Assembly (NCBI GenBank): GCA_002305475.1
Contig: DBRB01000019.1
Span: 56,022-120,021 of the forward strand
Direction of reading: 5' to 3'
From: a candidate division WWE3 bacterium UBA1379
GTDB taxonomy: Bacteria; Patescibacteriota; WWE3; UBA101185; UBA10185
Length of the DNA stretch: 64,000 nt
Numbering within the stretch: position 1 is the first letter of the stretch; every line of letters starts with the position of its first letter. The notes beneath the pieces were generated by a model. The model made no database searches, had not been told where the DNA came from, and worked only from the letters and a program-made list of their open reading frames with translations. Positions 3,910 through 57,800 of the stretch are shown here, piece by piece. The position numbers and the translations under genes are program-made.

Positions 3910-5088
3910 TTAAGCAATCACCTTGGTAACAACACCTGCACCGACAGTGTGACCACCTTCTCTGATAGCAAATCGAAGACCTTCTTCCATAGCTACCGGA
4001 GTAATCAGTTTAACCTTAAATGAAGTGTTATCACCGGGCATAACCATTTCCACACCTTCCTTAAGTGTAATCTCACCGGTCACGTCAGTAGTTCTTAAAT
4101 AGAACTGTGGTCTGTATCCACTGAAGAATGGTTTCTGACGTCCGCCTTCTTCCTTGGAAAGGATGATGACTTCAGCTTCGAATTCTGTATGAGGTTTGAC
4201 AGATCCCGGTTTGGCTAAAACCTGACCTCTTTCAATCTGATCTCTTTCAACACCTCTTAATAGGATACCTACATTGTCACCGGCCTGACCTTCATTCATC
4301 TGCTTCTTGAACATTTCAACACCTGTGACTACGGATTTTCTGGTTTCTTTAATACCGACGATTTCTACTTCTTCGTTGATGCTAATCTTACCTCTTTCTA
4401 CTCTTCCGGTTGCCACAGTTCCTCTACCCATGATAGAGAAAACATCTTCCACCGGCATCAAGAATGGTTTATCCAGTTCTCGGACTGGATCCGGAATATA
4501 GGAATCTACAGCATCCATTAAGTCTTCGATAGCTTTTACAGATTCAGGATCTCCTTCTAAAGCTTTAGCAGCTGATCCTTTAATAACAGGAGCATTTTCT
4601 CCGTCAAATCCGTACTTTGTTAAAAGTTCGCGGACTTCTAGTTCAACGAGGTCTAAAATTTCTTTATCGGCAACCATGTCAGTCTTGTTCATAAAGACAA
4701 CCATTGCCGGTACGTTAACCTGTTTAGCTAAAAGAATGTGTTCTCTGGTTTGAGGCATAGGTCCGTCAGGAGAGGACACAACAAGAATTGCTCCATCCAT
4801 CTGAGCAGCACCGGTAATCATGTTCTTGATATAGTCAGCATGTCCCGGAGCGTCAATGTGAGCGTAGTGTCTTTTATCTGTTTCGTACTCGACGTGAGTG
4901 ATATTAATGGTAATACCTCTTTCACGTTCTTCAGGAGCCTTATCGATAGAATCGTAAGCTCTGAATTCCGCTTTGCCTTTTCCAGCGAGAACTTTAGTAA
5001 TAGCAGCCGTTAATGTCGTCTTACCATGATCAACGTGACCTATGGTTCCGATATTAACGTGTGGTTTTGTTCTTTCAAATGTAGCCAT
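3910..5088 (-). CDS. tuf: Elongation factor Tu
   Basis: 392 aa. [30 protein letters not shown] motifs present. Lies downstream of fusA as in the str operon. Confidence 0.97.
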
Positions 5089-5624
5089 ATTATTCCTTTC
5101 AGGCTATCGCGGATTTTCAAATAACTTATATTCCGCGAACTAAAAAACTTAATACTCTGTTTTTAAATTTACTTATAACATAGAACATTTTCAGCTTTAT
5201 GCAATAGGCTTTCGAATTCTAACACATCTTTTACGTTTTATGAACCCCTTTTTTGCTTAAGGACACTGATTTTTATCCTTTTTAAGATTCTACGTTTTTT
5301 AGTGTTGTTAATTTGATAGTCTATTCAACCATAAATTACTACGCTGGACAGTAAACCAGATTTGAAGTAGAAAATCAAGTATTTCATAGAGTAGGTAAGG
5401 TTATGAAACAAAGTTTGATTTACCAATTTTCTAGTACCCTATAGTAATGAGATGTTTTCTTCTATCAACAACTCTAATCTCATTAATTGGGGGGTTTAAC
5501 TACTCTTTAAAACACGATAAATTAAGAAATACTAGTACACTGAATGATTTAACAATCAAGGATAACTTACAAATAATAAAAATTTAGAATTTAATTCCAT
5601 CAATGTTTCTGATAGATTTATATT

Positions 5625-7124
5625 ATGAGTTTGTCATTTACATCACTTTCATCACAAGAAGAATATTCAGAAGAAACAATGGATGAGTTAGTCAGAAAAT
5701 TTGAATTGGCAGAAGATGGACCAATCAACTTTACTAAAAATTTACATAAAATGTTTTCTGCACCCGAGGGATTAACTGAAAAAAAACAAGATCGAGTACA
5801 GCAATATGCCGAAGAAATATTAGGAGGTATTAATAGTGTCGTGAATAATAATAGAAAGGAATTGCAGGATTTTTTAAAAGAAAATGTTGCAACAGAAAGG
5901 CTTAACTCAAAAACCTTGCCGGAATTTGTTAAACAAACAGAGGATGCCATAGATTCATTGCGGTTTTTAGATAGTATTTTTGAAAATTCCCACAATGAAA
6001 CTTTATATGTAAATGCTATGAACTATGTAGACGGAGGATTAATTATTTCCTTGCATAAAGAAGATTGGAGTGATTGGCAGATTGGATCGAAAAGAATAAA
6101 TAGAGTTGAAATAAGTATAAAAACTTCTTCCGAACAAAAATCACAGGATTATACAATGCTTCAGCTGGGATTCAATCTATATAATATAAATGAAGAAGTT
6201 ACATCATTAAGAGCGGATATTCATCCGATTAGAAGACAGCAAATACAACCCGAAATAGTTAGTGATCAGCAAAATTACCAGGTACAATTAGATATAGAAC
6301 ATGATACTAATGAATCGTTTGTTCATAATAAACATATAGAACTCAAATCCATAAACCAGGGACAGATAATCAGCAATTTTAGAATGATTCAGCAGGTATT
6401 CCTGATTAACTTTGTAGAAAATTACCTTAATAAATCATCAACAAAACTCATAATGAACAGAGAAATAAGAGAACTAATAGAAAAAGAGTATAGTAAGGAA
6501 AAAAATCTACTAGGGTTAAACTCAAAATCAGGTGATTACCAAGCTAAACCGCCTAACCAACATCTTGTGGAAAGATTAGCAGATGATGAAAATATAATAA
6601 ATACAAACTTTCAAGTAGGCGAATATATTGCAAAATTACTAAAAAAACGTCTACCCAGTAAATTTGATGATAACCAATCACGTGAAGAAAAACAAATGGC
6701 ACAAGAAACTTTCGATAACTTAAAACCTAATGACGTGGTTACTATATGGTTTTTGAACCTGAGAAATGAACCAATAACTAAAAACAATAAACATAAGATT
6801 GAAAAAGAATACGGCGTAAATTCAGATAAAGGACAAACCTTACAAGAATCTAAAGATTTGTATGACTATACCTTAGGAATGAATATTTCACTTGAAGATA
6901 TGATAAAACAAATACATCAGCAGGCGACAGAACAAACTGAATATAATACGCTTCTAGAATTAATATCAGAAATTGAAAATGATGATATAAAAGAGGAAGA
7001 TAAATCAGAATATATCCGTCAAATAATTGCCTTATATTATGCAAAAATATATTTTGACGATGCAATTAAGAGCATAGAGGAAGAAAGTAATAAAGCAACT
7101 GTGTATATTCCTAAAAAGCGTTAA
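5625..7124 (+). CDS. Hypothetical acidic, coiled-coil-rich protein (499 aa) with no recognizable domain
   Basis: Uninterrupted 1.5-kb ORF in ~30% GC DNA, unlikely by chance given AT-rich stop codons. Lies opposite-strand between tuf and fusA. No catalytic motifs recognised by eye. Confidence 0.6.
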   Translation: MSLSFTSLSSQEEYSEETMDELVRKFELAEDGPINFTKNLHKMFSAPEGLTEKKQDRVQQYAEEILGGINSVVNNNRKELQDFLKENVATERLNSKTLPEFVKQTEDAIDSLRFLDSIFENSHNETLYVNAMNYVDGGLIISLHKEDWSDWQIGSKRINRVEISIKTSSEQKSQDYTMLQLGFNLYNINEEVTSLRADIHPIRRQQIQPEIVSDQQNYQVQLDIEHDTNESFVHNKHIELKSINQGQIISNFRMIQQVFLINFVENYLNKSSTKLIMNREIRELIEKEYSKEKNLLGLNSKSGDYQAKPPNQHLVERLADDENIINTNFQVGEYIAKLLKKRLPSKFDDNQSREEKQMAQETFDNLKPNDVVTIWFLNLRNEPITKNNKHKIEKEYGVNSDKGQTLQESKDLYDYTLGMNISLEDMIKQIHQQATEQTEYNTLLELISEIENDDIKEEDKSEYIRQIIALYYAKIYFDDAIKSIEEESNKATVYIPKKR

Positions 7125-7244
7125 ATTATTTTAATACAGATTCTTCTAACCTATAGTTGACATAAGTCGCTGTATAACCTATAATATAACTATCTTCTCC
7201 CTACTGAGGTAATATGTTTACAAAAAACAGAAACCTCCAATTGA

Positions 7245-7645
7245 ATAGTGCCAAAAAGGCCTTTGGCTTTGTTGGCACATGGCAGGGAGAGCAGCCACGA
7301 AACGCCAGTACGCGTGTATGGGGTACACGTCAGTATAGGCGCTTTGAGCGCTGCTAACCCTGGGATGCAGTAGTATCTCCTGCATCGCCCACTTATGGGA
7401 GAGATACAATGATTATGCCTTATATGAAGGCATAATGCCTGGCTGAGAACATTTGCCTTAGAGCATGTTCCAGTCTAGGTATAGACAATGGCTGATAGCT
7501 ATTGGAAGGGATGATCCTAGATCTTACAAATACCGCGAGGTAAGCCAGGATTTGAACAACCAAGAAAACCTACTAATGATTCCCATATATCATAACTTGC
7601 GAGGGAATCACTGTAGTAGACTGCTTAAAGCCAGAAAATTACACG
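7245..7645. ncRNA. Candidate structured non-coding RNA of unknown class; strand not determined (plus strand slightly favoured)
   Basis: A ~400-nt island visibly far GC-richer (estimated >50% by eye, not computed) than the ~35% GC neighbourhood. Many perfect local stems: GTGCCAA…TTGGCAC (7246-7280) enclosing palindrome AAGGCCTT; CGTGTA-TGGGG-TACACG (~7311-7329); GGCGC-TTTGA-GCGC (~7338-7352); GATGCAG-N9-CTGCATC (~7364-7386); ATTATGCC-N9-GGCATAAT (~7413-7438). Followed by a 9-bp perfect hairpin AAAGGCCGG…CCGGCCTTT (7671-7709). No conserved motifs of RNase P, tmRNA, SRP, 6S or tRNA found. Confidence 0.35.
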
Positions 7646-7737
7646 GATACCTTTTTTGTATTCGTGTCTAAAGGCCGGAACAGGATTTTACATCCCTACC
7701 GGCCTTTATCATTTGATAAACGATTTTAGATTAAGGG

Positions 7738-7770
7738 ATAAAAAATCCCGGAACTAAGTCCGGGATTTCG
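7738..7770 (-). terminator. Rho-independent terminator downstream of fusA
   Basis: Minus strand reads CGAAATCCCGGACTTAGTTCCGGGATTTTTT: a 7-bp GC stem (ATCCCGG/CCGGGAT) followed by a U-run, 23 nt after the fusA stop. Confidence 0.75.
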
Positions 7771-7792
7771 TGTTATTCGATTTGATAATTCT

Positions 7793-9868
7793 TTACTTTC
7801 CGCTTTTGACCAATTCAGCAACGTTTGCCGGAACTTCAGCATAGTGGCTCGGTTCCATGGTAAAAGAAGCCCTTCCCTGAGACATACCCCTAAGTTCAGT
7901 TGCATATCCAAACATTTCAGCTAAAGGAACCTTAGCGCTGATTGCTCTGGCATTACCCCTTGTTTCCGTACCCTCAATCTGGCCTCTCTTTGAGGAAAGA
8001 TTTCCGATAACATCACCCATAAATTCTTCAGGTGTTACAACCTCAACTTTCATGATAGGTTCTAAAAGATACGGACGGGCTTTATTCTGTGCATTCTTGA
8101 ATGCTTCAGCAGCAGCCATCTTAAATGCCATTTCGGAAGAGTCAACATCATGGTATGAACCGTCTATTAGAGTAAATTTCACATCCACTACCGGATATCC
8201 TGCTACCACACCGGTTTCTGCAGCATCACGCAAACCTTTTTCTACAGGAGCGATGTATTCTCTTGGAATAGAACCTCCAACAATCTTGTTTTCAAATTCG
8301 ATGCCAGCCCCTCTTTCCAATGGTTCCATTGTAATAACCACATGACCATACTGTCCGCGTCCACCGGATTGTCTGATGTGTTTTCCTTCCACTTCCACTT
8401 TGTCCTTAATGCTTTCTCGGTAAGCAACTTGTGGTTTACCTGTGTTTACTTCAACATTAAATTCTCTTCTCATACGATCAACGATAATATCCAAATGCAA
8501 TTCACCCATACCATAAAGAACCGTTTCTCCAGTTTCTGCATCCGATTTAACCTTTAAAGTAGGATCTTCTTCCAAAAGTTTTTTGAGAGATTCCCCGAGT
8601 TTATCTCGGTCTGCCTTAGTCTTAGGTTCAACAACTAAACCGATAACCGGTTCGGCAAAACTGATTGCTTCCAGAGTGACGAATTTTCCTTCTTCACACA
8701 ACGTATCTCCTGTAGTTGCTTCAACACCGATGACAGCACCTATTTCCCCCGCTTTCAGTTCCTTCACTTCTTCTCTATGATTTGCATGCATTAACAAAAG
8801 TCGACCAATTCGTTCTTTTTTGTCTTTGGTTGAGTTATAGACATAGGAACCTGCACTAATCATTCCTGAATATACTCGGACATAGGTTAATCTTCCAACA
8901 TATGGATCTGTCTGAACCTTAAATGCCAAAGTAACCATCTGTTCAGATGAATCAGGATTCACTTCAACAGGATTTCCGTCCTTGTCATAACCAAGGATAT
9001 GTCCGACGTCTTTAGGAGATGGGAGAAAATCTATCACACCGTCCAGCATTTTCTGCACCCCGACATTTGCCAATGATGCTCCGGCATAAACGGGAAATAG
9101 CTCATGGGCGATGGTAAGTTTTCTGATACCTGCTTTCAGATCTTCAACAGTAATTTCTTCACCACCTAGATACTTTTCGATTAAAGCGTCATCACCTTCT
9201 GCTACCTTTTCCACCAGAATTTTTCTGTATTCCTCCGTTTTTTCCTGCATATCTTGAGGTATCTGAATCTCTACTACATCAGCACCCAGTTTCCCTTCGA
9301 ATCTGTATGCTTTTCTTTCAATCAGATCGATAACGGAATTAAACTCACCTTCCAAGCCGATCGGAAGCTGAACAGCAACAGCATTTTTAGTCAGACGCTC
9401 ATGAATAGATTTTAAGGACATGTAGAAATCCCCCCCGACTTTATCCAGTTTATTTGCAAAAAAGAGAAGGGGAACATGATATTTTTCCGCCTGTCTGAAA
9501 ACAGTCTCTGACTGAGGTTCAACACCCTGTGAAGAGTCCAGTAAAATTACTCCTCCATCTAATACACGAAGTGATCTTTCAACTTCAGCAGTGAAGTCAA
9601 CGTGTCCAGGAGTATCAATAATATTAATTCGATGATCTTTCCAGAAACAGGTAGTAGCAGCGGATGTAATGGTAATACCCCGCTCTCGTTCCTGTGCCAT
9701 CCAGTCCATCTGGGCCGCACCTTCATGAGTCTCACCTATTTTATGAGACCTTCCGGTGTAATAAAGCACCCGTTCGGTAGTCGTGGTTTTTCCCGCATCA
9801 ATATGTGCGATAATACCAATATTTCTGATCCTCTCCAGAGGATATGTTTTGTTCATTGTGTCTGCCAT
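7793..9868 (-). CDS. fusA: Elongation factor G
   Basis: 691 aa. [25 protein letters not shown]-domain motifs. Placed between rpsG and tuf. Confidence 0.97.
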
Positions 9869-10086
9869 ATGTATAATTCCTTTTTAGTTTGTAACTTCTT
9901 GTTTCAATTAATCAAATAAGACCTAGCAAATATACAATATTTTCCGAAAAATTGCTATATTTCGCAACAATCCTATACTAGTAGTATTCTATTCTTGTAT
10001 TAAATTGTATTTAAGGCTAGTGGTTTACTTTTTTGTAACTTGTGTATAAAGGCTCCCTTTCGGGAGCCTTCTTGTTTTCTCAACCT

Positions 10087-10272
10087 TTATGCTTCTACAG
10101 TTTCCTCAGCAGGCTTTGCCTGTCTAGATAGCTTCAGGATATAGGAAAATCCTGCAAGCAAGATCACAGCTCCGACAAATACGAAATACATATTACCGGT
10201 TTTCTGCGACAACATCAGGAAAAATGTACCTCCAAAGGAAGTGAAATAAATAAGGATTCTTTGTAGAGACAT
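10087..10272 (-). CDS. Small predicted membrane protein (61 aa, two hydrophobic helices)
   Basis: ORF between rpsG and fusA. Two ~20-aa hydrophobic stretches (ILIYFTSFGGTFFLML; YFVFVGAVILLAGFSYIL). Followed by a perfect hairpin AAGGCTCCC-TTTC-GGGAGCCTT at 10050-10072. Coding status unverified. Confidence 0.35.
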   Translation of the reverse strand: MSLQRILIYFTSFGGTFFLMLSQKTGNMYFVFVGAVILLAGFSYILKLSRQAKPAEETVEA

Positions 10273-10439
10273 ATATTAGATTTTTTCATCTTCCACAGTA
10301 TAAAAAAGGGGAAAATGATACTCCTTAAAAATAGATGCGACCAAGCATCAATTTACAACAACCCGCAGCTGATGCGGAGGATAATAGCGGTTAGCATGTT
10401 CATACATGCAAATGGGTGAACGTATAGTTCACGGATAAA

Positions 10440-11349: not shown

Positions 11350-14300
11350 TTAATCCAATTTTGCTTCAGGACCGGTCGGAATTAAACGTCCAATAATTAC
11401 GTTTTCTTTCAGTCCAATTAGCTTATCGACTTTACCAGAGGCGGCTGCATCGGTCAAGACATTGCTTGTCTGAATAAATGAAGCAGCTGATAAGAAGCTG
11501 TCGGTATTCAATGAAGCTTTTGTGATACCCAGCAGCTGAACCTTAGCACTGGCAGGAGTACCGCCCGCGGCTAATACTCTTTCATTTTCTTCTTCAAAGC
11601 TAGCTTTTGTTACAACCTCGCCTACCAAAAAGTCGGTATCACCGGACTCTTCAATTCTGACATTGTTAAACATCTGTCTGACGATGACCTCAATGTGTTT
11701 ATCATTCAAAGACACACCCTGTGAAGAGTATACTTTCTGAATTTCGTTAATGATATAGCGTTTGGTTTCTTCTACTCCGACTGTTCTGAGAAGATCGGTT
11801 AGATCAAGGTGTCCGGATGTCAGTTTTTCACCCTTGGCTACCAGTTGTCCATCTTGAACTACAATTTCAGCAACCGGATCCACCATGTATTCAGCTGTCT
11901 GAATTTCATCAGAAGGATCGGTGGCAATCACCACGATTTTTCTTTCATCACCAGATGTAGAAATCTTTACGGTACCGGTAATTTCACTCATGATAGACAG
12001 GAATTTCGGAGCTCTTGCTTCAACAATTTCCTCAACTCTGGGCAACCCTTGGGTAATATCTTTTCCTGCAATTCCTCCCGTATGGAATGTTCTTAATGTC
12101 AGCTGTGTACCCGGTTCACCGATGGATTGAGCGGCTGCCACACCAACTGCCGTTCCAATTTCAACATCTTTTCTGGTAACAAGATCCAAACCGTAACACT
12201 TTGAACAAATACCTCTTCGGGTTTCACATCCCATCGGAGATCTGAGAATAATTTTGTCCACTTCAGCCTGTTGAATAGTTTTTATATTATCTGGTGTCAA
12301 TAATGTACCGGCTTTTAAGATTACCTTGCCATTAGCTTTCACATCCTGAGCAAGATATCTTCCGGAAACTCTTTCTGCAAATTTCTGCAAAAGTGTTTCT
12401 TCATCCAGTTTAATTTCTCGACCTCTATTTGTACCGCAGTCATACTCTCTTACTAATACGTCCTGGGCAACATCCACCAGTCTTCTGGTCAAATAACCTG
12501 CATCTGCAGTCTTTAGACCCTTATCAACCAAACCTTTTCTTGCACCACGTCCTGATACGAAATATTCCAAACCCGATAATCCGGTCTTGTAGTTGCCTAG
12601 AATCGGCAGCTGCACCAGATGTCCGGTAGGATCTGAAACCAGACCCTTGACTCCTGCAATCTGTTTAACCTGATCTCTGGATGCTCTGGTTGAACCGGAT
12701 TTAACAAGCACTTTCACAGGGTTGTCTTCCGGAAGGCTGCTCCAGACAGCATTATCAATTTCTGCAGTAACCTGATTCCACGCATCTTCAGTTAATCTCT
12801 GTGCTTCAGCTCTGGTTATTAAACCTCGCTTAAAGTTCTTATCGATTTCTGCAACCGCCTGGTATCCTTTTGCGATGATTTCATCTCTGGATTGAGGAAT
12901 CTTGATATCATCCAAAGAGACGGACTGACCGGATACGGTTCCGTATTTCAGACCCAGATCTTTTAGATCGTCAATCAATTTGGTAATTACTTCATTTGAT
13001 TCTCTTTCAAAAGCCTGAGCAAGCAATGCCTTAATACCGCTTTTAGTCATTTCTTTATTTATGAACCCAAAAGACTGTGGAATTATTTCATTGAATAAGA
13101 CTCTTCCCGGTGTAGTTTCCACTAATTCCCCTTTGATGTTTACCTTAACACGCTGTCTTAAGGAGATCCTGTCACCTTTATGCATGCTGAGGTAATAAAG
13201 AAGTTCATCTTGATCAGCAAACACGGTTTCATGTAGCGGCAGATTCTCATCCACAGATGTCATGTAATAAGTACCGAAAAGCATAATTTTAGTAGGTACT
13301 GACATCGGTGACCCATCAGAAGGATTAAGCAGATTATTTGTAGAAATAATCTTATTTCGTGCTTCATTCTTTGCCGCTTCGGATAACGGAAGATGAACAG
13401 CCATCTGGTCTCCGTCAAAGTCAGCATTAAATCCTGAACAGACACAAAGGTGCAGTCTGATGGCATTGCCTTCAATTAGTTTGGGATAGAATGCCTGAAT
13501 ACCTAATCTCCAAAGTGTAGGAGCTCTGTTTAAGAGAACCGGATGATCTTTGACCACTTCTTCAAGAATATCCCATACTTCTGCAGAACGGGCTTCAATA
13601 AAGAACTTTGCGCTTTTCACATTAGGAGCATATCCTCTGCTTAATATTTCTCTTAAGACAAATGGCTTGAATAATTCCAGAGCCATTTCTTTTGGAAGAC
13701 CACATTCATTCAGCTTTAAGTTAGGACCATTGATAATCACACCTCGTCCTGAGTAGTCGACTCTTTTACCAAGAAGGTTCAATCTGAAAATACCCTGCTT
13801 TCCTTTAAGCATATCGGAAAGGGATCTTAATTCTTTCTTACCTCTTGCCAGTCTGGTCTTTTGTCTTTGCTTGGAGGAATCAAATAGGGCATCCAGAGAT
13901 TCCTGAAGCATTCTTTTTTCGTTTCTAATAATTATTTCCGGGGCACCCAGATCTAAAAGCCTCTTAAGTCGATTATTTCTGTTAATAAGTCTTCTGTATA
14001 GTTCATTCAAATCGGATGAAGCAAATCTTCCGCCTTCCAGCTGAACCAGAGGTCTAAGATCAGGCGGGATAACCGGTACTACTGACAAGATCATTCTTGA
14101 CGGTTCTATTCCGGCTCTTCTGAACTGTTCAACTACTTTTAATCTCTTTGCCAGTTTGGATGCTTTCTGACCGCGGGCATTTTCCAGTTCTTCCCTAAGC
14201 TGGGAAGCCAATTCATTCAGATCCATCTTAGAAAGGATACCTTCTAATGCTTCGGCTCCGATCTCCATCTTAGTGAAGATCTTCAGATAGTCGCTTAAAT

Positions 14301-15030
14301 TAACGTATTCGTTATCGGATAAAACAGAGTACAACTCTACGCTTTCAATTTTCTTTTGGATCAGTTTAAAATGCTTCTCATAATCTTTCAGTTTCTTATC
14401 AAAGGACGCTCTAAGTGTCTGAATTCTCTGGCGCAGTTTGATGGACTCTTCCTGAGCCTTAAAGTCATCTTTCTTTTTAGATAATTCCTCCAACATTTTT
14501 TCAAAGTCTTTAGACTGTCTTTCATATTCTTTTTCCACTTCTGCTTTTGCTTCTGCCAGATCCTCTTCTACTTTTGAAATTGCCTGAGCTTTTTTAGTTC
14601 CATCAAACTGAGTGACGATAAAGGAAGAGAAATAAATCACGGATTCTATATTTCTTGGAGAAATATCCAGCAGTAATGCCATTTTTGAAGGAATACCGCG
14701 GAAGAACCAGACATGAGCAGCCGGACTGGCCAATTCTATATGACCCATTCTTTCTCTTCTGACTCTTGAGTGGGTAACTTCTACACCGCATTTATCGCAG
14801 ATGACGCCTTTATATCGGATACCTTTATACTTGCCGCAGTAACATTCATAATTTTTTACCGGACCGAAAATCTGCTCGTCGAATAAACCATATTTTTCCG
14901 CTTTGAATGTACGGTAATTAATGGTTTCCGGTTTTGTCACTTCCCCGAATGACCAGGATCTGATCTCTTCCGGAGAAGCCAAGTATATTCTTATTGAATC
15001 AAAATCTTTTAAATCACTTAAATATTTCAT
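11350..15030 (-). CDS. rpoC: DNA-directed RNA polymerase subunit beta'
   Basis: 1226 aa. Zn-finger CxxC…CxxC near the N-terminus. NADFDGDQMAVH catalytic loop. Trigger-loop and bridge-helix regions present. Confidence 0.97.
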   Translation of the reverse strand: MKYLSDLKDFDSIRIYLASPEEIRSWSFGEVTKPETINYRTFKAEKYGLFDEQIFGPVKNYECYCGKYKGIRYKGVICDKCGVEVTHSRVRRERMGHIELASPAAHVWFFRGIPSKMALLLDISPRNIESVIYFSSFIVTQFDGTKKAQAISKVEEDLAEAKAEVEKEYERQSKDFEKMLEELSKKKDDFKAQEESIKLRQRIQTLRASFDKKLKDYEKHFKLIQKKIESVELYSVLSDNEYVNLSDYLKIFTKMEIGAEALEGILSKMDLNELASQLREELENARGQKASKLAKRLKVVEQFRRAGIEPSRMILSVVPVIPPDLRPLVQLEGGRFASSDLNELYRRLINRNNRLKRLLDLGAPEIIIRNEKRMLQESLDALFDSSKQRQKTRLARGKKELRSLSDMLKGKQGIFRLNLLGKRVDYSGRGVIINGPNLKLNECGLPKEMALELFKPFVLREILSRGYAPNVKSAKFFIEARSAEVWDILEEVVKDHPVLLNRAPTLWRLGIQAFYPKLIEGNAIRLHLCVCSGFNADFDGDQMAVHLPLSEAAKNEARNKIISTNNLLNPSDGSPMSVPTKIMLFGTYYMTSVDENLPLHETVFADQDELLYYLSMHKGDRISLRQRVKVNIKGELVETTPGRVLFNEIIPQSFGFINKEMTKSGIKALLAQAFERESNEVITKLIDDLKDLGLKYGTVSGQSVSLDDIKIPQSRDEIIAKGYQAVAEIDKNFKRGLITRAEAQRLTEDAWNQVTAEIDNAVWSSLPEDNPVKVLVKSGSTRASRDQVKQIAGVKGLVSDPTGHLVQLPILGNYKTGLSGLEYFVSGRGARKGLVDKGLKTADAGYLTRRLVDVAQDVLVREYDCGTNRGREIKLDEETLLQKFAERVSGRYLAQDVKANGKVILKAGTLLTPDNIKTIQQAEVDKIILRSPMGCETRRGICSKCYGLDLVTRKDVEIGTAVGVAAAQSIGEPGTQLTLRTFHTGGIAGKDITQGLPRVEEIVEARAPKFLSIMSEITGTVKISTSGDERKIVVIATDPSDEIQTAEYMVDPVAEIVVQDGQLVAKGEKLTSGHLDLTDLLRTVGVEETKRYIINEIQKVYSSQGVSLNDKHIEVIVRQMFNNVRIEESGDTDFLVGEVVTKASFEEENERVLAAGGTPASAKVQLLGITKASLNTDSFLSAASFIQTSNVLTDAAASGKVDKLIGLKENVIIGRLIPTGPEAKLD

Positions 15031-15033
15031 ATT

Positions 15034-18000
15034 TTATTCCTCCGCTTCCTCCTGTAAATCCTCTACGTCTGATAATTCCGATTGAACTTCATCTGTATCA
15101 ACGGCTTTTTCCGTTACTTCCGCATATTCGGACTCTGTCTGTTCGGATTCTGTTTCATCTCCGCTTCCGCCTAATGCTTCCAAACCCAAACCTAATCCGT
15201 TCATCTGTCGAACCAACAGTTTGAAGGTTTCAGGAATTGTTGATTCAGGAATTTCTTTACCCTGTATCATGGCACTATATGCCTGGGTTCTTCCAACCAG
15301 GTCATCTGATTTAATGGTCAGCATTTCTTTAAGTACATGTGCTGCACCATATGCTTCCAATGCCCACACTTCCATTTCCCCGAATCTCTGACCGCCAAAC
15401 TGTGCCTTACCACCCAACGGCTGCTGAGTAATCAATGAGTAAGGACCGGTTGATCTTGCATGCATCTTTTCCTCTGACATATGAATAAGCTTTAATAGAT
15501 AGGTATCACCGACCACAATTTCGTTTTCAAATGGTTCGCCTGTTCTACCGTCAATCAGACATAATTTACCGGAAACTGGAAGTCCAGCCTTCTGGAGTTC
15601 TGTTGCGATTTCATCTTCGTCTATAGTTTCCAAAGAAGGAATCACATATCTTTTATTCAGTATCTTAGCTGCTGTTCCTAACGGCGCTTCCAGAATCTGA
15701 CCAACATTCATACGTTTTAAAACTGCCTCGGATGAGAAAATGACATCCACGGATGAACCATCCGGTAGTCTTGGCATATCGATAGCAGGAACGATTGCTG
15801 AAATGACACCTTTGTTACCGTGTCTTCCTGCAAGTTTGTCCCCAATCATGATTTTTCTTTGCTGAGCTACATAAACGGTAATTTCTTCCAACACACCTGC
15901 CGGTAACTCTTCATTTTCTTTACGGGAAACTCTCTTCACACCGATTACCACACCGTGTTCACCGTGAGGCATAGTCAAAGAATTATCGCGTACATCCTTG
16001 GCTTTTTCCCCAAAGATTGCTCTAAGAAGTCTTTCTTCTGCCGATAAGTCAAGCTCACCCTTAGGAGCGATTTTTCCAACCAAAATATCGCCGGATTTTA
16101 CTTTTGAACCGATGGCAACAATTCCATTTTCATCCAGATTTCTTAAGGCTTCTTCTGAAACATTAGGAATATCTCTGGTGATTTCTTCCGGACCTAGTTT
16201 TGTTTCCAAAACTGATACAGTGTAATCCGACACATGAATGGATGTCAGAATGTCTTCTTTTACTAAACGATCTGAAATGACAATTCCGTCTTCAAATTCG
16301 AATCCTTCCCAGATCATGTAGGCAACCTTAACGTTAGTTCCGATTGACAGTTCACCATCATCCACACCGGGTCCTTCAATTAAGATATCGCCTTTTTTCA
16401 CTTTCTGATCGGGATTTACTTTTACATACTGGTTGTAACAGGTATCCAGATTTGATTTCTGGAATTTAGAGGGGTGGTATTCTGCTTTTTTACCGTTGGC
16501 ATATTTAACAACCACACGGTTTCCTTCAGCTACCAATACTTCTCCGTCAGCTTCTGCCTTAGTTACAGCATAAGCATTTTCAGCTACAACATCTTCAATA
16601 CCGGTACCAACCAAAGGGGCTTCTGGTATTACCAAAGGTACTGCCTGAGACATCTGCTGGGTACCCATTAATGCTCTAGAAACGTCATCATTCTGTAAGA
16701 AAGGAATCAAACCTGCTGAGATAGATACAATCTGGCGGGGAACAACTTCAATATATTCTGCCAAGGATGCATCTCCCAAACTGAAGTTTCCTCCTCTACG
16801 AAGAGGGATTTGTTTATCTAAAATATAGCCTTTTTCATCCACATTTACGGAAGCATCGGTGATGTATTTGTTATCTTCATCATAAGCTGCAAGATATACA
16901 ACTTCATTTGTAACCCGTATTCTTCCGTCTGTTTCTTTCTCTAATTTATAGTAAGGAGTTTCCAAAAACCCAAACTTATTTACTCTGGCATACATTGCCA
17001 TGTAGTTAATTAAACCGATGTTCGGACCTTCAGGAGTTCTAACCGGACAAATTCTACCAAAAGAAGAATAGTGAACATCTCTGACTGCCATACTAGCTCT
17101 TTCCTTGGTTAACCCTCCCGGACCCATGACTGATAATCTTCTTAAGTGATCAAGAGATGTTAAAGGATTCTGCTGATCCTGCATTTGTGATAATGCACCG
17201 CTGGCGAAAAAGCTGTGAATATTGGCTGCCACGGCACGTGGTGAAATGAGAACAGACGGTTCTGGAAGTTCATCTCTGGGCTGCAGGCTCATTTTTTCCT
17301 TGATATTTTTCTCCATTCTCAAAAAACCGATTCTAATCTGATTCTGCAGCAGTTCTCCCACACCTTTGACTCTTCTGTTACCTAAATGATCAATGTCACT
17401 AATATCACCTAGACCGTTATTAAGCTCAATAATTCTGGAAATTATTTTTATTAAATCCTCAAGCTGTAATAGTCTGTGCTCGGGATCGTTAGGAATATTT
17501 AAACCTAAAACCTGATTCGCTTTGAATCTTCCGACTTCACCAAGGCTATATCTTCTCTTGTTGAAAAACATGGATTCAACCAAAGCTCTTGCATTCTCTA
17601 ATACGAGAGGTTCACCCGGTCTCATTTTTCTGTATATTTCGATACATGCTTCGTCGTATGTGGTTGAGGGATCCTTTGATAATGTAGATTCCGTATAGTT
17701 TATTTCAGGATTTGTTTCTACCTCTTTAAAAGCATTTCGGATATCATCGTCTGATTCTAATCCGAATACTCTTAACAGAGTTGTGATGGTAATTTTTCTT
17801 TTTCTGTCAATTTTGACGCTGATCACACCACTTCTGGCAGTTTCAATTTCCAGCCAGACACCGTTTTTAGGAAGTACTTTTGCACCGGCTAAAAACTGCC
17901 CGGTGATAGGGGAATTTGCGCCTGTAAATAAAACACCTTCAGATCGGATGAGCTGATTAATCACAACTCTTTCCACACCGTTTATAACAAAGGTGCCGTG

Positions 18001-51854: not shown

Positions 51855-54800
51855 TTATTTATTCTTCTTTTTTAATTTTACAACTATAACCACCAGAATA
51901 ACTATAACAAAAGTTAAGATTCCGATAATTCCATATGATAATGGTGAGATTGAAAGTGGTTTTTCTTGGACGGTAACATTAAGAGCAAACTCCTTAACAT
52001 CTCCCTCTAGATTTATTGATTGTTCACCTACAAATCTGCCGTAGGCAATAATGACTCGGTGGTCACCTGGTTCTACATTATAAAATTCTGCGATACCATC
52101 GCCATCTGTGGTAGTTTCTTGGACTTTTGAGTGCATTGTAACTTTGGCTCCGACTACTGCATCGCCTTTAGTATCAGATACTTTTACTTTGACTTTATAT
52201 CCTTCAGCCTTATCAATAATTTCCGTAGACTTTTCCTGATCCTCTTGACTGTTATTACAATTTATTTTGAGTTCCCAACCACTATTGAGATTATTTGATG
52301 ACCCAAGTGAAGGGTACTTGCCTTTGTTTTGTTCAATTATCTCCTTGTATTTATTGCCGTCTCCCAGTTTCTCCTGAGCTATCGACCACAAACTATCACC
52401 TGATTTGACTGTATATGTTTGACAAGAATTAGCTTGAGTTGACTTCTCTTCTGCAATTGATGTTAATTCAGAATTTGTTATCTCTAAATTGTTTGCAGAA
52501 ACATAACCCCAGGTTTTGGCTGAGATTTCTTGGGACCAATTACCAGCGGCACAGCCATTACCGGCCCTAATCCTAAAGTAGTATCTTGTATTAGGTGAAA
52601 GAGACTTAACCAAATATTCTCTTGTGCCTTTATCTCCAATTGTTGTTGCTCCCCAAATATATTTCCCTGGTTCGGTGCCAAACTCCAGGGCATAGTGTTC
52701 GACTGGGTCACTAGCAGAACCAAATTGCAATAAAATAGAATCGGTGCCTCTGGCAGTTGCTCCCCAGAGTAGCGGTGTACTTCCTGGCGCAGTTTTATCA
52801 CAACTAGGGGCGGAAGCAGAAGAATTACTGCTTGAGGAAGAATCTGAACTGTTGGCATTGATCGTAACTGTGTTTATCGTATCTGTACCACTAGAGGAAT
52901 AGGCGGACGAATTTTCTGCCAGGTCAGCCGATTTGACTCGAAAATACCAGGTTCCATCAGCAAGAGCAGTAGAATGGGTATATGAATTTGTTGTTGAAGT
53001 GTCTGTATTTGAATCACAACCTGTAAAACCAGAGTTAGAACACCACTGAACTGAATAGGGGGAAGTAGACAAACCGGAACCGGTATCAGTTGATGCTGTC
53101 CAAGACCAGGTTGGGGTATTGTCAGTGGTTAATGAGGCAGTCGATGGAGTTCCGGGAGTGGTAGGTGCAGTTGTATCTAAGGTAAACGCTCCGGTATTGT
53201 AGGATGAACCCTGATTTGTTAACGAGTCTCTATACTGCACATATACTGTCCTTGATCCTTCAGTAGTTCCACAGCCGTAAGCTGCAGCTCCCGGCTTGAT
53301 ATCAAAATCAGTTTTGGGAGTAGCATACGCTTCCCAGGCAGTCCAGGTGGCATTGTCGCAAGAAAAGCGCATCTGCGCTCCGGTTACACCCACCCCCGCA
53401 TCGGCAATGGTTAATGCAAGGGAGGGAGTATTATCGTTGGTTGGATCAGTTGCCTGAATGATTGTCCCTGTCGGTCCGGTCGTATCAAAATTTGTAGAAT
53501 CACTGACAATACCTGATTCATTTCCCAGTGCATCCTTCAGTTTTGCGCTGATTGTCTTTGCTCCGTTTATTATGCTGCAGCCTGTTGCTCCTGTAGTGAT
53601 GTCAAAAGAGGAAATGGTATCAGAGTATGCCATCCAGGCAGACCAGTTAGTGCCGCCGTTACAGGAGAAAGCAGCATGCGTCGGTGTACCTGTCTGGGTT
53701 ATCGCAATTGAAGGAGTAGAATCATTGGTGTATCCTCCAGTGTCTGTAATAGCAATAGAGGTTAAGGCAGGTCCTGTGACGTTCCAGGTTACAGAATTAT
53801 CTGAAGTTGTTGATGCATTATTAGGATTGCCGGCTGCGTCATGGGCTTTATCTGCAGCAACACTTACCGTAACTGTTCCTGATCCGGTCATTCCCGATAC
53901 TGCCACATTGTACGTCGTTCCTGATCCCGTAACTGTCGCTGTGGTTGCCCCGGCTGTCCCTCCTAAAGTAACATCACCGGTGGTAAAGTCAGAAACAGAC
54001 TCTGAAAATTCAACAGTAAAATTAATCGGTGAGACATTGGTTGGATCTGACTGTCCCACAGCCTGGTTGATGGTTACATCAGGATTAGTAGTATCAACCG
54101 TCAGTGTCCCTTCTGATTCTTCACTTTCATTACCTGCCAAATCTATGGCTTTGACAAAGAAGTTGTAAATGCCTTCTGCCAGGTTGGTAACCACATTAGT
54201 TAATGCTGTTGTCCCTGAGGTAATTGCTGACCCTGTTGTCCTCCAGGCATACTGCAATACACCTGACACTGCATCGGTCGCCGCCGACCAGGTCCAAGTT
54301 TGCGAAGTCTGGTTGGTTGGAGAGGCAGGTGTAGGTAAAGGAGTGCCAGGTGTACTTGGCGCTCCGGTATCCACTTTGACAGTATTAGCTCCAGTGTAAG
54401 TTGCTTGTTGAGATAGATTATCTGAAACAAGGTGGCGATATTGATAGCAGTTTCCTGAACTAACATCAGTATCTATTAAATTTGGGTAGCTGCCGCTAGG
54501 AGAGATAGCTGAAAAGCTACCGTAAATAGTACATATTCCTAAAATTAAGGGCGCAGATCTTCTCTGAATAATTCTTGATGAGGTATTTACTCCGGAGCCT
54601 GTGCCGTCTGAACCGTCTGCAACAGTTAAAGAAACGGAAGCTATCGTATAGTAACCATCAGTGTAGGTCATTGATCCTCCTGTCGGAGCAGTCGTGTCAT
54701 AAACTGTTGAATCAGAAGCAGTAGATGACTCATTACCTGCTAAGTCCTTCAGCTTTGCAGTTATCGCTTTTGATCCATCGGAAGACGTACAGCCTGTTGC

Positions 54801-57800
54801 ACCATTAGTGACATCAAAAGAAGAGATAGTATCTGAGTATGCAATCCAGGAAGACCAGTTAGTGCCTCCGTTACAGGAGAATGCTACGTGAGTTGGTGAG
54901 CCTGAAGAATTTATGTTAATGGTCGGAGTTGAATCGTTCGTATAGCCCGAAGAATCAGAAATGGTAACTGAAGTTAACGTCGGTGCGGTTTCATCATTTA
55001 GCAGAATTATTGCATCCTCAGACTCTAAAGTAATCGAGCCTACTTCACTGCCGTCATTATATCTGGTTGTTGTTTCTAATCTCACAGCATCGGCAACTAC
55101 AGTACCTGTAGTTCCGGCTCCTGAAAAGACAACACTAGAAGTATCAGTAGTTGTGAAATTGTATGTTCCCAATTCATGCCAGCCTACTGAACCGGTTGTC
55201 TCGTTTAATGTAGTCGTATCTGTACTCCCTGCATGATTTATCGTTACGGAGACATTAGCCCGGTTACTTCCGCTTGGAGCAACCCAAGCATATACAACGT
55301 AATTCCCGTCATACTCAATCACCGGGTTATATGTGACAGTAGCTGCCGGATTACTGCCGGTAATAGTTTTAAAAGTACTGCCGAATTGGTTTGGATAGGA
55401 GGTGCTGGTAGATGCAGTATTGGTCCAACCGCCTGATACCACTGTGGTTGAGTCATCATCATCTACCCGGGTGTAATACAAGGGTGCCTGATTACCGTTA
55501 AGTTTTACATAATTTGTACCGAAAATGGATGTTAAATCAATTGTTTTTTCTTCCGGAGTAATATTTACCAACACTCTACCGTTATCGAATGGTCTAGTCC
55601 ATACTCCGATCGTCCCCTCTTGAAACTTAATGTCATCAAAATAAATATCTCCTTCGCTTGTACCAAGATCAATTGTTAACCTCCCTTGATTACTGTTATT
55701 TACCGTTCCTTTCATTATTAGATAAAAATGCTGCCATTCTGTAGTCAAATTAGCTCTTCCATACTTTAAATCAGAATCAAAAGCGGTATCATACTCCCAA
55801 GGATTGACTTGGCGTTGGACTCGCGTGCCACTTAATGTTCTTGCTGGATTAGCTTTTGCCCAGAAAGATAAAGTGTAATATTTATCCACTTCTATGGTTA
55901 AGTTGTTTTGGTAAAAAACAATATAATGCGATCCATCTCCAGCCGGATTCCCCGCAGGAATAGAGATATGCGCTCCCGGTCCGCCGCTAATTCCACCAGT
56001 AGCATCAATGCTTAATGGATTTACAGAGACTCCAGCTCCTGCGGCTTCCAGTGACCAATTGCTTGTTCCGCTGCTGAAATCTCCATTAGCAATATCATCC
56101 GTGCTGCTTAATGTTGGTATCGCTAATGCAGCATCTGCGGTTGGCTGACCTAAATAACCGGTGGTTGTGTAGTCTCCTTGTGTACCATACTCGTCATACC
56201 AATAATTATGTCCATATGAGTAAGGCGACAAATCATACGAAAAGACTCCGTTACCCATTAAAGCTGTAACCAGTCCAAACCTCAGTCTTTTGTAGTCACT
56301 ACCCGCCTCATTGATCATTGCGGTGGGCATATTAGTTACACCTGGCCCGTATTTGCTAGCTATAGCTGCTAAGGAGTTAGTGTTTAAATCCACGATCACA
56401 GGTGTTTGCTCGCCATTACTGATCCAATTTTTATAGTAATTAACGGTATCAATCCAAGGTGAAGGATAATAATCATCTATGTAATTTCTTACGTCATTTT
56501 CTAAAAATCTCCCATTTTCCCACGTACCATAGCTAATAGGTGAACCATTTCCAATGATAATTGCATTAGGGATGGCAGCTCTGATTTGAGCTAAAGCACT
56601 TTCCACTCCGGCTTGATAGGCTGCATTTAGAGTTGCTGTGTTATCTGCTACTCCATCGAGATCCGAATCAATATCTGGTCCGATGGTATTAGTTATAGTT
56701 GTGCCTACCATATCCCAAAACCACCCATCAAAAGCCAAATTGGTCTCCTCCCAATTGTCTACAGCCTGATTAACTAATTGCGTCACACAATAAGCATTAG
56801 TCAGGTTATACATAGGATTCCCGTATGTTCCATTAGTCAGTATTGTCCCTGAGGTATTTCTAAACATACATGGGTAACCAGGATCACCGGGTGAAGCGTT
56901 TAACCATGTACTGTAAACATTATGTGCAAGATAGGAACCGGCCTGGCCATACGTTAAATCCTGGGTCATCAATACTTTTGCCTTGGAATTAATTGCCCTA
57001 ATCGCATTTGCTCTAGATTGGGCGGTGGCATTACTTGACCAGGATATCCACGTATTGTAGCCTGCGAAATAATCATTTTGATACGACCCTCCGTAAGACC
57101 CCCATTGGTTATACAGCCTAGGATATCCAGCATCAAAGGTCCCCATCTTTCTTAACTGGGTGGTAACTTCCATGCTGTCGGCCGATCTTCCGGTAGCTGG
57201 AGTGTCATCGCATCGAACATAAAAGGTTCGAGTGGTAATAGTATTCCAATTACTAATTGAGGTACTGTGCGCAGTTGTTCCCTGACCAGTTGTAAAATTA
57301 TTGGTCATACTGGCATATGGAGTATCAGGCGATTCGCTATAACGGCAATTTGCATTAGCCCAGGTAGTTAAACTAAGGGTTGCAGAAGATGTATCTGAAC
57401 TTAATAAACGGTATGACGGTGACAATGAACTCAGTGCGGGGGTGTAATAATATGGTCCCAGATCAAGAGTGTCATTAGCAACATCTGCACTGTTATAACT
57501 CTTAACATGAAGATAATAGGGAATCGAAGAATCCGTACCTGTAGTCAAAGTTAAAGTACCGCTGGTCCATTGAGTTTCTGATTCATTCCATACATGGGTA
57601 GCTGAATTGTCCCATGCCCACCTGAGGTACTGGATCGCACCAGCACCGAAACCTGCGCCATTTGTTACCACATAAGTATTGGGCAAAGTATGTTCTATGG
57701 TTATATTTGACAAAGTTGGAGCCGTGGATAGGGTTGTATATGTAGCATTAGACGAGGGGGAAGAATTTCCATAGGAATTATAGGCGACAACTCTGCGAGT

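Follow-up and report, generated by a model that had tools for sequence, protein, structure and literature searches.

A probable accessory-gene slot and a candidate structured RNA between fusA and tuf of a candidate division WWE3 bacterium

In Escherichia coli, the str and S10 genes are organized as rpsL-rpsG-fusA-tufA followed by rpsJ and the genes beyond it, with tufA also having secondary promoters inside or after fusA. The gene order around fusA and tuf is often taken as invariant, and binning and phylogeny make use of it as a marker block. The locus described here is the fusA-tuf junction in a 64,000-nucleotide (nt) stretch of DNA, referred to below as the window, from the candidate division WWE3 bacterium UBA1379 (contig DBRB01000019.1, positions 56,022 to 120,021 of the forward strand). 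Its organization resembles that of E. coli in that rpoB-rpoC-rpsL-rpsG-fusA on the - strand are followed, beyond a gap, by tuf-rpsJ-rplC-rplD and further genes (list of open reading frames (ORFs), Pfam domains and the gene calls of an identical Logan contig), and in that tuf appears able to start from its own promoter. It differs in that a strong terminator follows fusA, tuf forms a unit of its own together with the S10 genes, the two are set apart by 2.7 kb of DNA transcribed from the opposite strand, and the rpsG-fusA junction has been opened too, by a small membrane-protein ORF and a terminator. A contiguous str operon is not found here, as fusA and tuf are parted by a gap of 2,704 bp (5089-7792), the fusA terminator and the tuf promoters; the 2.7-kb distance given in the initial annotation of this DNA thus holds, with both genes identified by Pfam. 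The gap is identical in a second assembly, Logan SRR5321211.

The gap is probably a variable accessory-gene slot at a pre-existing boundary of two transcription units, holding an opposite-strand gene of 499 codons (ORF499) and a lineage-specific structured RNA gene. Hypervariable islands of accessory genes between conserved core genes, which are hotspots of integration or turnover, are a general concept, and the junction is similar to them in its fixed conserved flanks, in content that differs between close relatives and in the dominance of low-GC orphan genes. It differs from them in showing no integrase, tRNA or att-type features at the slot, and in that the C-terminal region of ORF499 and a family of orphan proteins in the same slot of relatives (family A, described below) appear to be vertically inherited and diverging in place. 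The features that delimit the gap are as follows.

3910-5088, - strand: tuf (elongation factor Tu), which leads the downstream tuf-rpsJ-rplC... unit; Pfam GTP_EFTU with D2 and D3 domains, E 2e-65
5089-5624: AT-rich spacer, 536 bp, GC 0.278
5089-5385, - strand: conserved putative promoter region of tuf with its 5' leader, in the ~300 bp of the spacer nearest to tuf (nhmmer, alignment, promoter scan)
5108-5137, - strand: leader hairpin of tuf
5244-5216, - strand: putative promoter P2 (block 2), TTCATA-17-TAGAAT with TG upstream (conservation and promoter scan)
5378-5350, - strand: putative promoter P1 (block 1), TTGATT-17-TTTACT with TGG upstream (conservation and consensus)
7735-7770, - strand: intrinsic terminator of fusA (AAATCCCGGA-CTTAGT-TCCGGGATTT followed by TTT), hairpin and T-run at 7743-7768 (terminator scan)
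7793-9868, - strand: fusA (elongation factor G, EF-G); Pfam GTP_EFTU, EFG_III, EFG_IV and EFG_C

The nearest EF-G proteins bearing a name are from candidate division WWE3, and tuf has 85% identity with its counterpart in WWE3 GW2011_GWC2_41_23 (locus L002). The clean fusA terminator of the initial annotation is borne out by the terminator scan as a 10-bp GC-rich hairpin (10 pairs, 5 of them GC) with a T-run, 23 nt past the fusA stop codon, at which fusA transcription would end. At the tuf side, a Shine-Dalgarno-like GAAAGGA stands immediately before the tuf ATG, and the region of ~5204-5402 is conserved upstream of tuf in the loci L082-L085 (nhmmer); both promoter blocks are near-invariant in these close WWE3 relatives, a group with fusA 78-84% identical, the compact locus L084 included. 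In the alignment of relatives, block 1 has the form CTTGATTTTC-N-AAATCTGGTT(A/T)ACT, read as TTGATT-17-TTAACT with TG upstream, and block 2 the form GGGGTTCATAAA-CGTAAAAGATGTGTTAGAAT, read as TTCATA-17-TAGAAT with TG upstream. Block 1 recurs ahead of tuf in L002, L082-L085, L095 and L096, and in an altered form in L097. Judged from sequence conservation and consensus, blocks 1 and 2 likely act as tuf promoters, and tuf-rpsJ and the genes beyond would be transcribed from P1 and P2 and then through the leader. Block 1 also holds a GATTT...AAATC inverted repeat, which could be a regulator-binding site instead of, or besides, a promoter. As fusA has its own terminator and tuf has its own conserved promoters, the junction can be regarded as a terminator-promoter boundary of transcription units; DNA placed between the two would leave core-gene expression undisturbed, and the slot may tolerate turnover for this reason. 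The promoter blocks are also present in relatives whose junction is compact, and they predate the content of the gap.

The junction was compared among 80 species-representative genomes fetched with EF-G, plus the closest WWE3 relatives. The distance from fusA to tuf is mostly 30-200 bp in the 80 genomes, and 127-365 bp in L002, L084 and L097, in agreement with the expectation of the initial annotation that the two genes are normally adjacent. Many Patescibacteria in the sample have 0.4-3.6 kb between fusA and tuf, filled by unrelated genes, and orphan genes are also among these contents. The gap genes of L005 (8207-9346) and L006 (2726-5519) are co-directional and have a type IV pilin-like N-terminal methylation motif (N_methyl), and L028 (4686-5048) has a co-directional Phd/YefM-like antitoxin gene in its gap. 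The loci closest to the present one are as follows.

L082: EF-G identity 84%, gap 2.86 kb, three genes
L083: EF-G identity 83%, gap 3.76 kb, three genes
L084: EF-G identity 82%, gap 225 bp, empty
L085 / L095: EF-G identity 80%, gap 2.68 kb, two opposite-strand orphans
L096: EF-G identity 78%, gap 2.4 kb, two opposite-strand orphans
L097: EF-G identity 77%, gap 365 bp, empty
L002: EF-G identity 73%, gap 127 bp, empty

The comparison with relatives that had been proposed therefore has a divided outcome, with fusA and tuf contiguous in some WWE3 (L084, L097, L002) and interrupted in five of the eight related loci, which have differing contents of 2.4-3.8 kb at the junction, mostly opposite-strand acidic orphans. 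Since both size and content of the gaps vary among relatives, the junction is a variable slot that recurs across relatives, rather than the product of a single break. Three of the slot orphans, L085_454, L096_321 and L083_497, are mutually related (E 1e-19 to 1e-31) with ~280 N-terminal aa in common, and constitute slot orphan family A. The initial annotation had allowed that the 499-aa gene and the GC-rich element might prove to be ancestral conserved features of housekeeping function; a related orphan does occupy the same place in relatives, but there is no GC island there and no housekeeping function can be assigned. A further locus with 73% EF-G identity, L003, is a contig of a 'Saccharibacteria' metagenome-assembled genome and has no tuf within 6 kb downstream. 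The features noted in this contig (10684-10783 and 12032-12100) are a 100-nt N-run adjoining a high-GC membrane-protein gene, which may be a scaffolding chimera, and a DUF3800-IX RNA (Rfam, 61 bits).

The protein-coding part of the gap comprises the following features, all on the + strand.

5386-5624, + strand: sequence ahead of ORF499, in which TTAACA-17-AATAAT at 5549-5577 is a candidate promoter (promoter scan, 10/12 matches)
5625-7124, + strand: ORF499, 499 aa, acidic (open frame and homologs)
5715-6569, + strand: N-terminal alpha/beta domain of ORF499, aa ~31-315, of a sparse uncharacterised family (phmmer, AlphaFold2)
6591-7055, + strand: C-terminal helical region of ORF499, aa 323-477, in common with L085_454 (BLASTP, phmmer)

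The number of promoter-like sites in the upstream region equals the shuffle expectation, and the candidate promoter at 5549-5577 is thus weak evidence. The 536-bp AT-rich spacer and the acidic opposite-strand ORF of the initial annotation both stand as described. ORF499 has an isoelectric point (pI) of 4.98, a net charge of -25 and no hydrophobic segment, and its GC content of 0.304, with 0.226 at third codon positions (GC3), compares to 0.42 and 0.33 for fusA and tuf. It is considered a real gene because the open frame is far longer than expected by chance (~1e-18 for 499 codons at 30% GC, by our own estimate) and because homologs exist. The claim that it has no recognisable domain holds for curated libraries, with no Pfam, NCBIfam, PHROG or PADLOC match, but not for distant homologs: a word-indexed search of 5.8e9 proteins returned ORF499 itself alone, both with the single sequence and with a seven-sequence profile, whereas exhaustive phmmer against 1.84e9 representatives found six homologs (P0122-P0127; E 1.8e-7 to 1.1e-4, 27-34% identity) over aa 31-315. 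The alignment of the seven sequences has 18 invariant columns, and the motifs FLDxFC, VEIxxRTGE, TPMQLNFRF, SLRxDMH, QVDA and FxxLQxxFLxNF recur; by similarity and motifs, ORF499 belongs to this uncharacterised acidic N-domain family, which has no Pfam entry. The homologs are found at unrelated loci of other low-GC genomes resembling those of the candidate phyla radiation (CPR), and their contexts (L086-L089) have no common neighbour gene and no such RNA. In L086, P0123 lies between tRNA-Gly and a tRNA-Leu/tRNA-Arg pair (7523-7596, 8001-9305, 10020-10199), among small orphan ORFs; Cas1 is encoded a few kb away, as is a large protein that gave a faint Cas12f-like match (13193-14170, 15011-17305).

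The description of ORF499 as a coiled-coil protein is not upheld by structure prediction, as the N-terminal 300 aa are confidently modelled as an alpha/beta domain and long helices are predicted only in the C-terminal half, at low confidence. The AlphaFold2 model of the N-domain, made from the alignment, has a predicted local distance difference test score of 81.7 and a predicted TM-score of 0.83, and shows two long helices, then an antiparallel sheet of seven strands, then another two helices. Foldseek searches of the PDB and BFVD gave nothing significant. The domain is like p32/gC1qBP (MAM33) in being acidic and in having N-terminal helices, a sheet of ~7 antiparallel strands and C-terminal helices, and 1p32 and 6szw were among the weak Foldseek matches (E 0.6-1.1, TM-score no higher than 0.25); such values are not significant, do not establish a common fold and serve as a lead only. 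In the C-terminal half, aa 323-477 match aa 300-447 of L085_454 (E 1e-9 to 1e-11 by BLASTP and phmmer in a small local database), and no match was found to the N-terminal region common to L085_454, L096_321 and L083_497, hence ORF499 is a partial relative of family A rather than a member. On sequence similarity, ORF499 can be described as a mosaic in which the scattered N-domain family is joined to a slot-inherited C-terminal region; it would be a rapidly evolving acidic cytoplasmic protein. As its C-terminal region is homologous to the same-slot gene of L085, the opposite-strand gene of the slot appears at least partly inherited and fast-evolving rather than newly inserted. ORF499, the N-domain homologs and the family A orphans are all acidic (pI 4.6-5.3) and without transmembrane or hydrophobic segments.

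Between ORF499 and fusA lies the GC-rich island, with the following features.

7157-7185, + strand: sigma-70 consensus promoter TTGACA-17-TATAAT with an AT-rich stretch upstream (promoter scan, 12/12 matches)
7192-7716, + strand: candidate structured non-coding RNA (ncRNA), ~520 nt (fold energy, promoter, terminator-like end)
7669-7716, + strand: terminator-like hairpin of the island (UAAAGGCCGG...CCGGCCUUUA), then UCAUUUGA (sequence and fold)

No second perfect TTGACA-17-TATAAT occurs in the 64 kb (if up to one mismatch is allowed, 2 matches are found and 0.81 expected); the promoter is located 33 nt past the ORF499 stop and 5-6 nt ahead of the first predicted helix, with a predicted transcript start of ~7192. 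The ~400-nt GC-rich, hairpin-dense element of the initial annotation is real, although its length from promoter to terminator is ~520 nt. Its GC content reaches 0.50 (7200-7400), compared to a window mean of 0.39, and is ~10 points above that of the flanking non-coding DNA. The segment 7190-7715 (526 nt) has a minimum free energy of -197 kcal/mol, z -9.8 on the + strand against dinucleotide shuffles, and in a 240-nt sliding fold scan of the 64 kb the three highest ranks among 532 windows all fall in the island; the first of them, 7201-7440 (z -7.2), contains no terminator. In the 5' domain (7191-7406), a 10-bp long-range helix encloses four hairpins, including a rod of ~35 bp (7283-7362). Hairpins of 8-10 bp follow one another along the 3' domain (7408-7713), and one of them has a GCGA tetraloop (7535-7538). 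The last hairpin (7669-7708) is branched, has a U-rich tail and faces the fusA terminator; it was missed by the consensus terminator scan because its loop is branched and longer than 8 nt. No terminator was found between the ORF499 stop (7124) and the island promoter, so ORF499 transcripts probably also carry the island at their 3' end. Neither tandem nor direct repeats were seen in 7150-7760, and the island contains no ORF longer than 68 aa; its small ORFs have no family match. A very basic 47-aa ORF (MFTKNRNLQLNSAKKAFGFVGTWQGEQPRNASTRVWGTRQYRRFERC), preceded by GAGG 4 nt before the ATG, lies at 7214-7357 (+) inside the 5' domain and has no family match either.

ORF499 and the RNA would both be transcribed away from tuf and towards fusA, and a stable structured RNA of ~520 nt would be driven by the 7157-7185 promoter and end at the U-tailed hairpin of 7669-7716. 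By inference, the promoters and terminators function in these roles, the island acts as a + strand RNA, and ORF499 and the RNA have separate functions. The case for an RNA is drawn from thermodynamics, composition and the bracket of promoter and terminator, and the island is to be regarded as an unproven, lineage-specific candidate. Our best guess is an abundant trans-acting RNA, since the promoter matches the consensus, the island is enriched in GC while the genome is AT-rich, and a helix closes off the 5' end.

In the GC-IGR and DIMPL searches for ncRNA candidates, as outlined in PMC6429828, PMC8723152 and PMC11109978, candidates have the same traits as the island, namely a long intergenic region, GC content well above background, and a promoter and terminator around a strongly folded segment. 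The difference is that the classes outlined there were accepted on multiple homologs with covariation, whereas the island is a single sequence and matches none of the Rfam families named for them. Among the large RNAs that are in Rfam, OLE, GOLLD, ROOL, HEARO/omega RNA and raiA are alike in size class (>400 nt), in multi-domain, hairpin-rich architecture and in predicted independent transcription; they differ in that the island gave no covariance-model match to OLE, GOLLD, ROOL, HEARO or raiA, also at E<=10, and that no signature gene goes with it. HEARO, for example, accompanies IscB, and no IscB gene is present here. Other effectors of guide RNAs (TnpB/IscB, IS110, Cas, Nop-domain Tas) do not adjoin the island either, its neighbours being ORF499 and fusA. 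There is no reverse transcriptase in the gap that would indicate a retron or diversity-generating retroelement, and comparison of the ORF 3' end with the island gave, at best, a direct repeat of 21 nt (76% identity). A TIGR or CRISPR array was rejected in the absence of repeats.

Searches for relatives of the island were made at several levels. Rfam 15 gave nothing relevant at gathering score in the whole 64-kb window, where ARAGORN and Rfam found no tRNA, transfer-messenger RNA (tmRNA) or RNA family at gathering score, the island included. At E<=10 with permissive filters, the 2.7-kb gap and the 611-nt island gave chance-level matches only (up to 23 bits, unrelated small families, E at least 0.9). 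With the island and with the whole gap, nhmmer against 96 fetched loci found self-matches and the tuf leader only, and a single-sequence covariance model of the 5' domain found only itself in 39 sources (525 kb). Neither blastn of the island against phages and plasmids nor six exact 21-26-mers of it against viral contigs gave any match; one 20-mer had 5 matches in metagenome contigs, all of them random high-GC contigs without extended similarity. The loci of relatives have no room beside fusA for a comparable element. No homolog of the island was found in any of these searches. Some candidates were considered and rejected: the GC-rich patches of L086 are tRNAs, the GC-rich patch of L003 is the scaffold N-run beside its membrane-protein gene, and a T-loop-like GTTCAAATCC on the - strand, seen by eye, has no pairing stem that would make it a degenerate tRNA.

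Several of the results count against the interpretation of the gap as a slot with a structured RNA gene. The island is found in this genome alone, and an RNA function has no backing from conservation or covariation. Its - strand has z -9.0, close to that of the + strand, and the promoter is for this reason the main ground for the strand assigned, with weak support from G-U pairs (12 in the + fold, 7 in the - fold). The match of ORF499 to L085_454 reaches significance in the local, synteny-restricted comparison alone, and the ORF499 ATG has no obvious Shine-Dalgarno sequence upstream. The occupancy of the slot is patchy relative to fusA identity, and repeated gain and repeated loss are indistinguishable.

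It is unlikely that the island is instead non-functional, either as the decaying relic of a lost element or gene or as DNA-level palindromes and bidirectional terminators between convergent genes, its promoter being a coincidence or a leftover. Such an origin would suit a singleton without a homolog anywhere searched, with near-equal folding of the strands, helices of mostly perfect Watson-Crick pairs and a location in a zone of convergent transcription, where hairpins accumulate; however, z -9.8 over 526 nt exceeds what terminators explain, the terminator-free 5' 240 nt still hold the first rank in the scan, GC is enriched over the flanking non-coding DNA, and the single perfect -35/-10 pair of the window is placed exactly at the 5' edge of the island. 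A slot-protein pseudogene left no trace under the island either (no tblastn signal). The same promoter, lying between ORF499 and the island, argues for independent transcription, and it is very unlikely that the island is no gene of its own but a structured 3' untranslated region of the ORF499 mRNA, acting in cis as stabiliser or regulator, or an mRNA for small basic peptides. The missing terminator after ORF499 and the GAGG ahead of the basic 47-aa frame speak for these readings, but the small ORFs match no family and are buried in strong helices, and homologs of either ORF499 domain have no such element downstream. A highly divergent form of a known housekeeping or mobile-element RNA (RNase P RNA, tmRNA, 6S, signal recognition particle (SRP) RNA, a group I or II intron, or an omega, bridge or tracr-type guide) is suggested by the size, GC enrichment and strong promoter, which resemble those of stable housekeeping RNAs, and by the absence of RNase P, tmRNA, SRP and 6S genes from the window, so that none is accounted for locally; these canonical genes are, however, probably elsewhere in the genome. 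With no Rfam family at either threshold, no tmRNA by ARAGORN, no RNase P P4 motif, tRNA-like end or group II domain V by eye, no adjacent TnpB, IscB, IS110, Cas or reverse transcriptase gene, and no repeat arrays, this identity is highly improbable. The island may also be the first representative of a new class of large stable structured ncRNA in Patescibacteria, expressed from the consensus promoter; it might work with the acidic proteins of the slot, for instance in host or phage interaction of these episymbionts, and would have no known relatives only because the lineage is barely sampled. This idea is tentative and on the doubtful side.

For the gap as a whole, the initial annotation suggested an insertion or accessory module inside a core operon. 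The accessory nature of the content is supported, but a discrete, operon-breaking insertion is not, given the boundary, the variable slot, the slot homology and the lack of mobile hallmarks. That a recent mobile or horizontal insertion, with ORF499 and the RNA as one cassette, split a contiguous fusA-tuf operon is accordingly quite unlikely, even though ORF499 departs in composition from its neighbours (GC 0.30 and 0.42, GC3 0.23 and 0.33), the RNA island is missing from every relative, the junction is empty in some close relatives, and the N-domain homolog P0123 is located between tRNA genes, a typical island site. Repeats over 4900-8000 are short low-identity pairs typical of AT-rich DNA and none is at the borders of the gap or the RNA, so that terminal inverted repeats and target duplications are lacking; Pfam, PHROG and PADLOC show no transposase, integrase or phage-like gene in the gap; and neither blastn nor tblastn matched it to phage or plasmid collections, nor was anything similar seen in viral contigs. 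The C-terminal homology of ORF499 to the L085 orphan of the same slot points to inheritance in place, and the tuf promoters are older than the gap content.

The variable slot at the transcription-unit boundary is therefore the interpretation retained here. In WWE3 and other Patescibacteria, the fusA-tuf junction would be a tolerated site of landing and turnover for accessory genes, as a terminator-promoter boundary is present there. The slot concentrates fast-evolving acidic orphan proteins, and genes of this type in tiny episymbiont genomes are candidate interaction factors. Interruptions between fusA and tuf are common in the sampled Patescibacteria and orphan genes in variable slots are ordinary; what the locus contributes is new items of known kinds, namely an uncharacterised N-domain family and an unmatched candidate RNA of ~520 nt. 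With a single copy and no covariation, the island remains a candidate RNA; if expressed and conserved, it would add to a very short list, as few bacterial ncRNAs exceed 400 nt.

Elsewhere in the window, GC-rich patches occur only at ~53.2-54.3 kb and ~55.9 kb, where a single ORF of 2,916 aa (51855-60605, - strand) covers them. The rpsG-fusA junction is widened as well, to 571 bp (9869-10439, - strand), and contains a conserved hydrophobic ORF of ~61 aa (MSLQRILIYFTSFGG...). This ORF is followed by a GC-rich hairpin and its T-run and, upstream of fusA, by a long AT-rich region. The 571-bp interval has z ~-4.5 in the fold scan. The DNA of the small ORF is missing in L084, which has 16 bp between rpsG and fusA, and is conserved in L082, L083, L085, L095 and L096.

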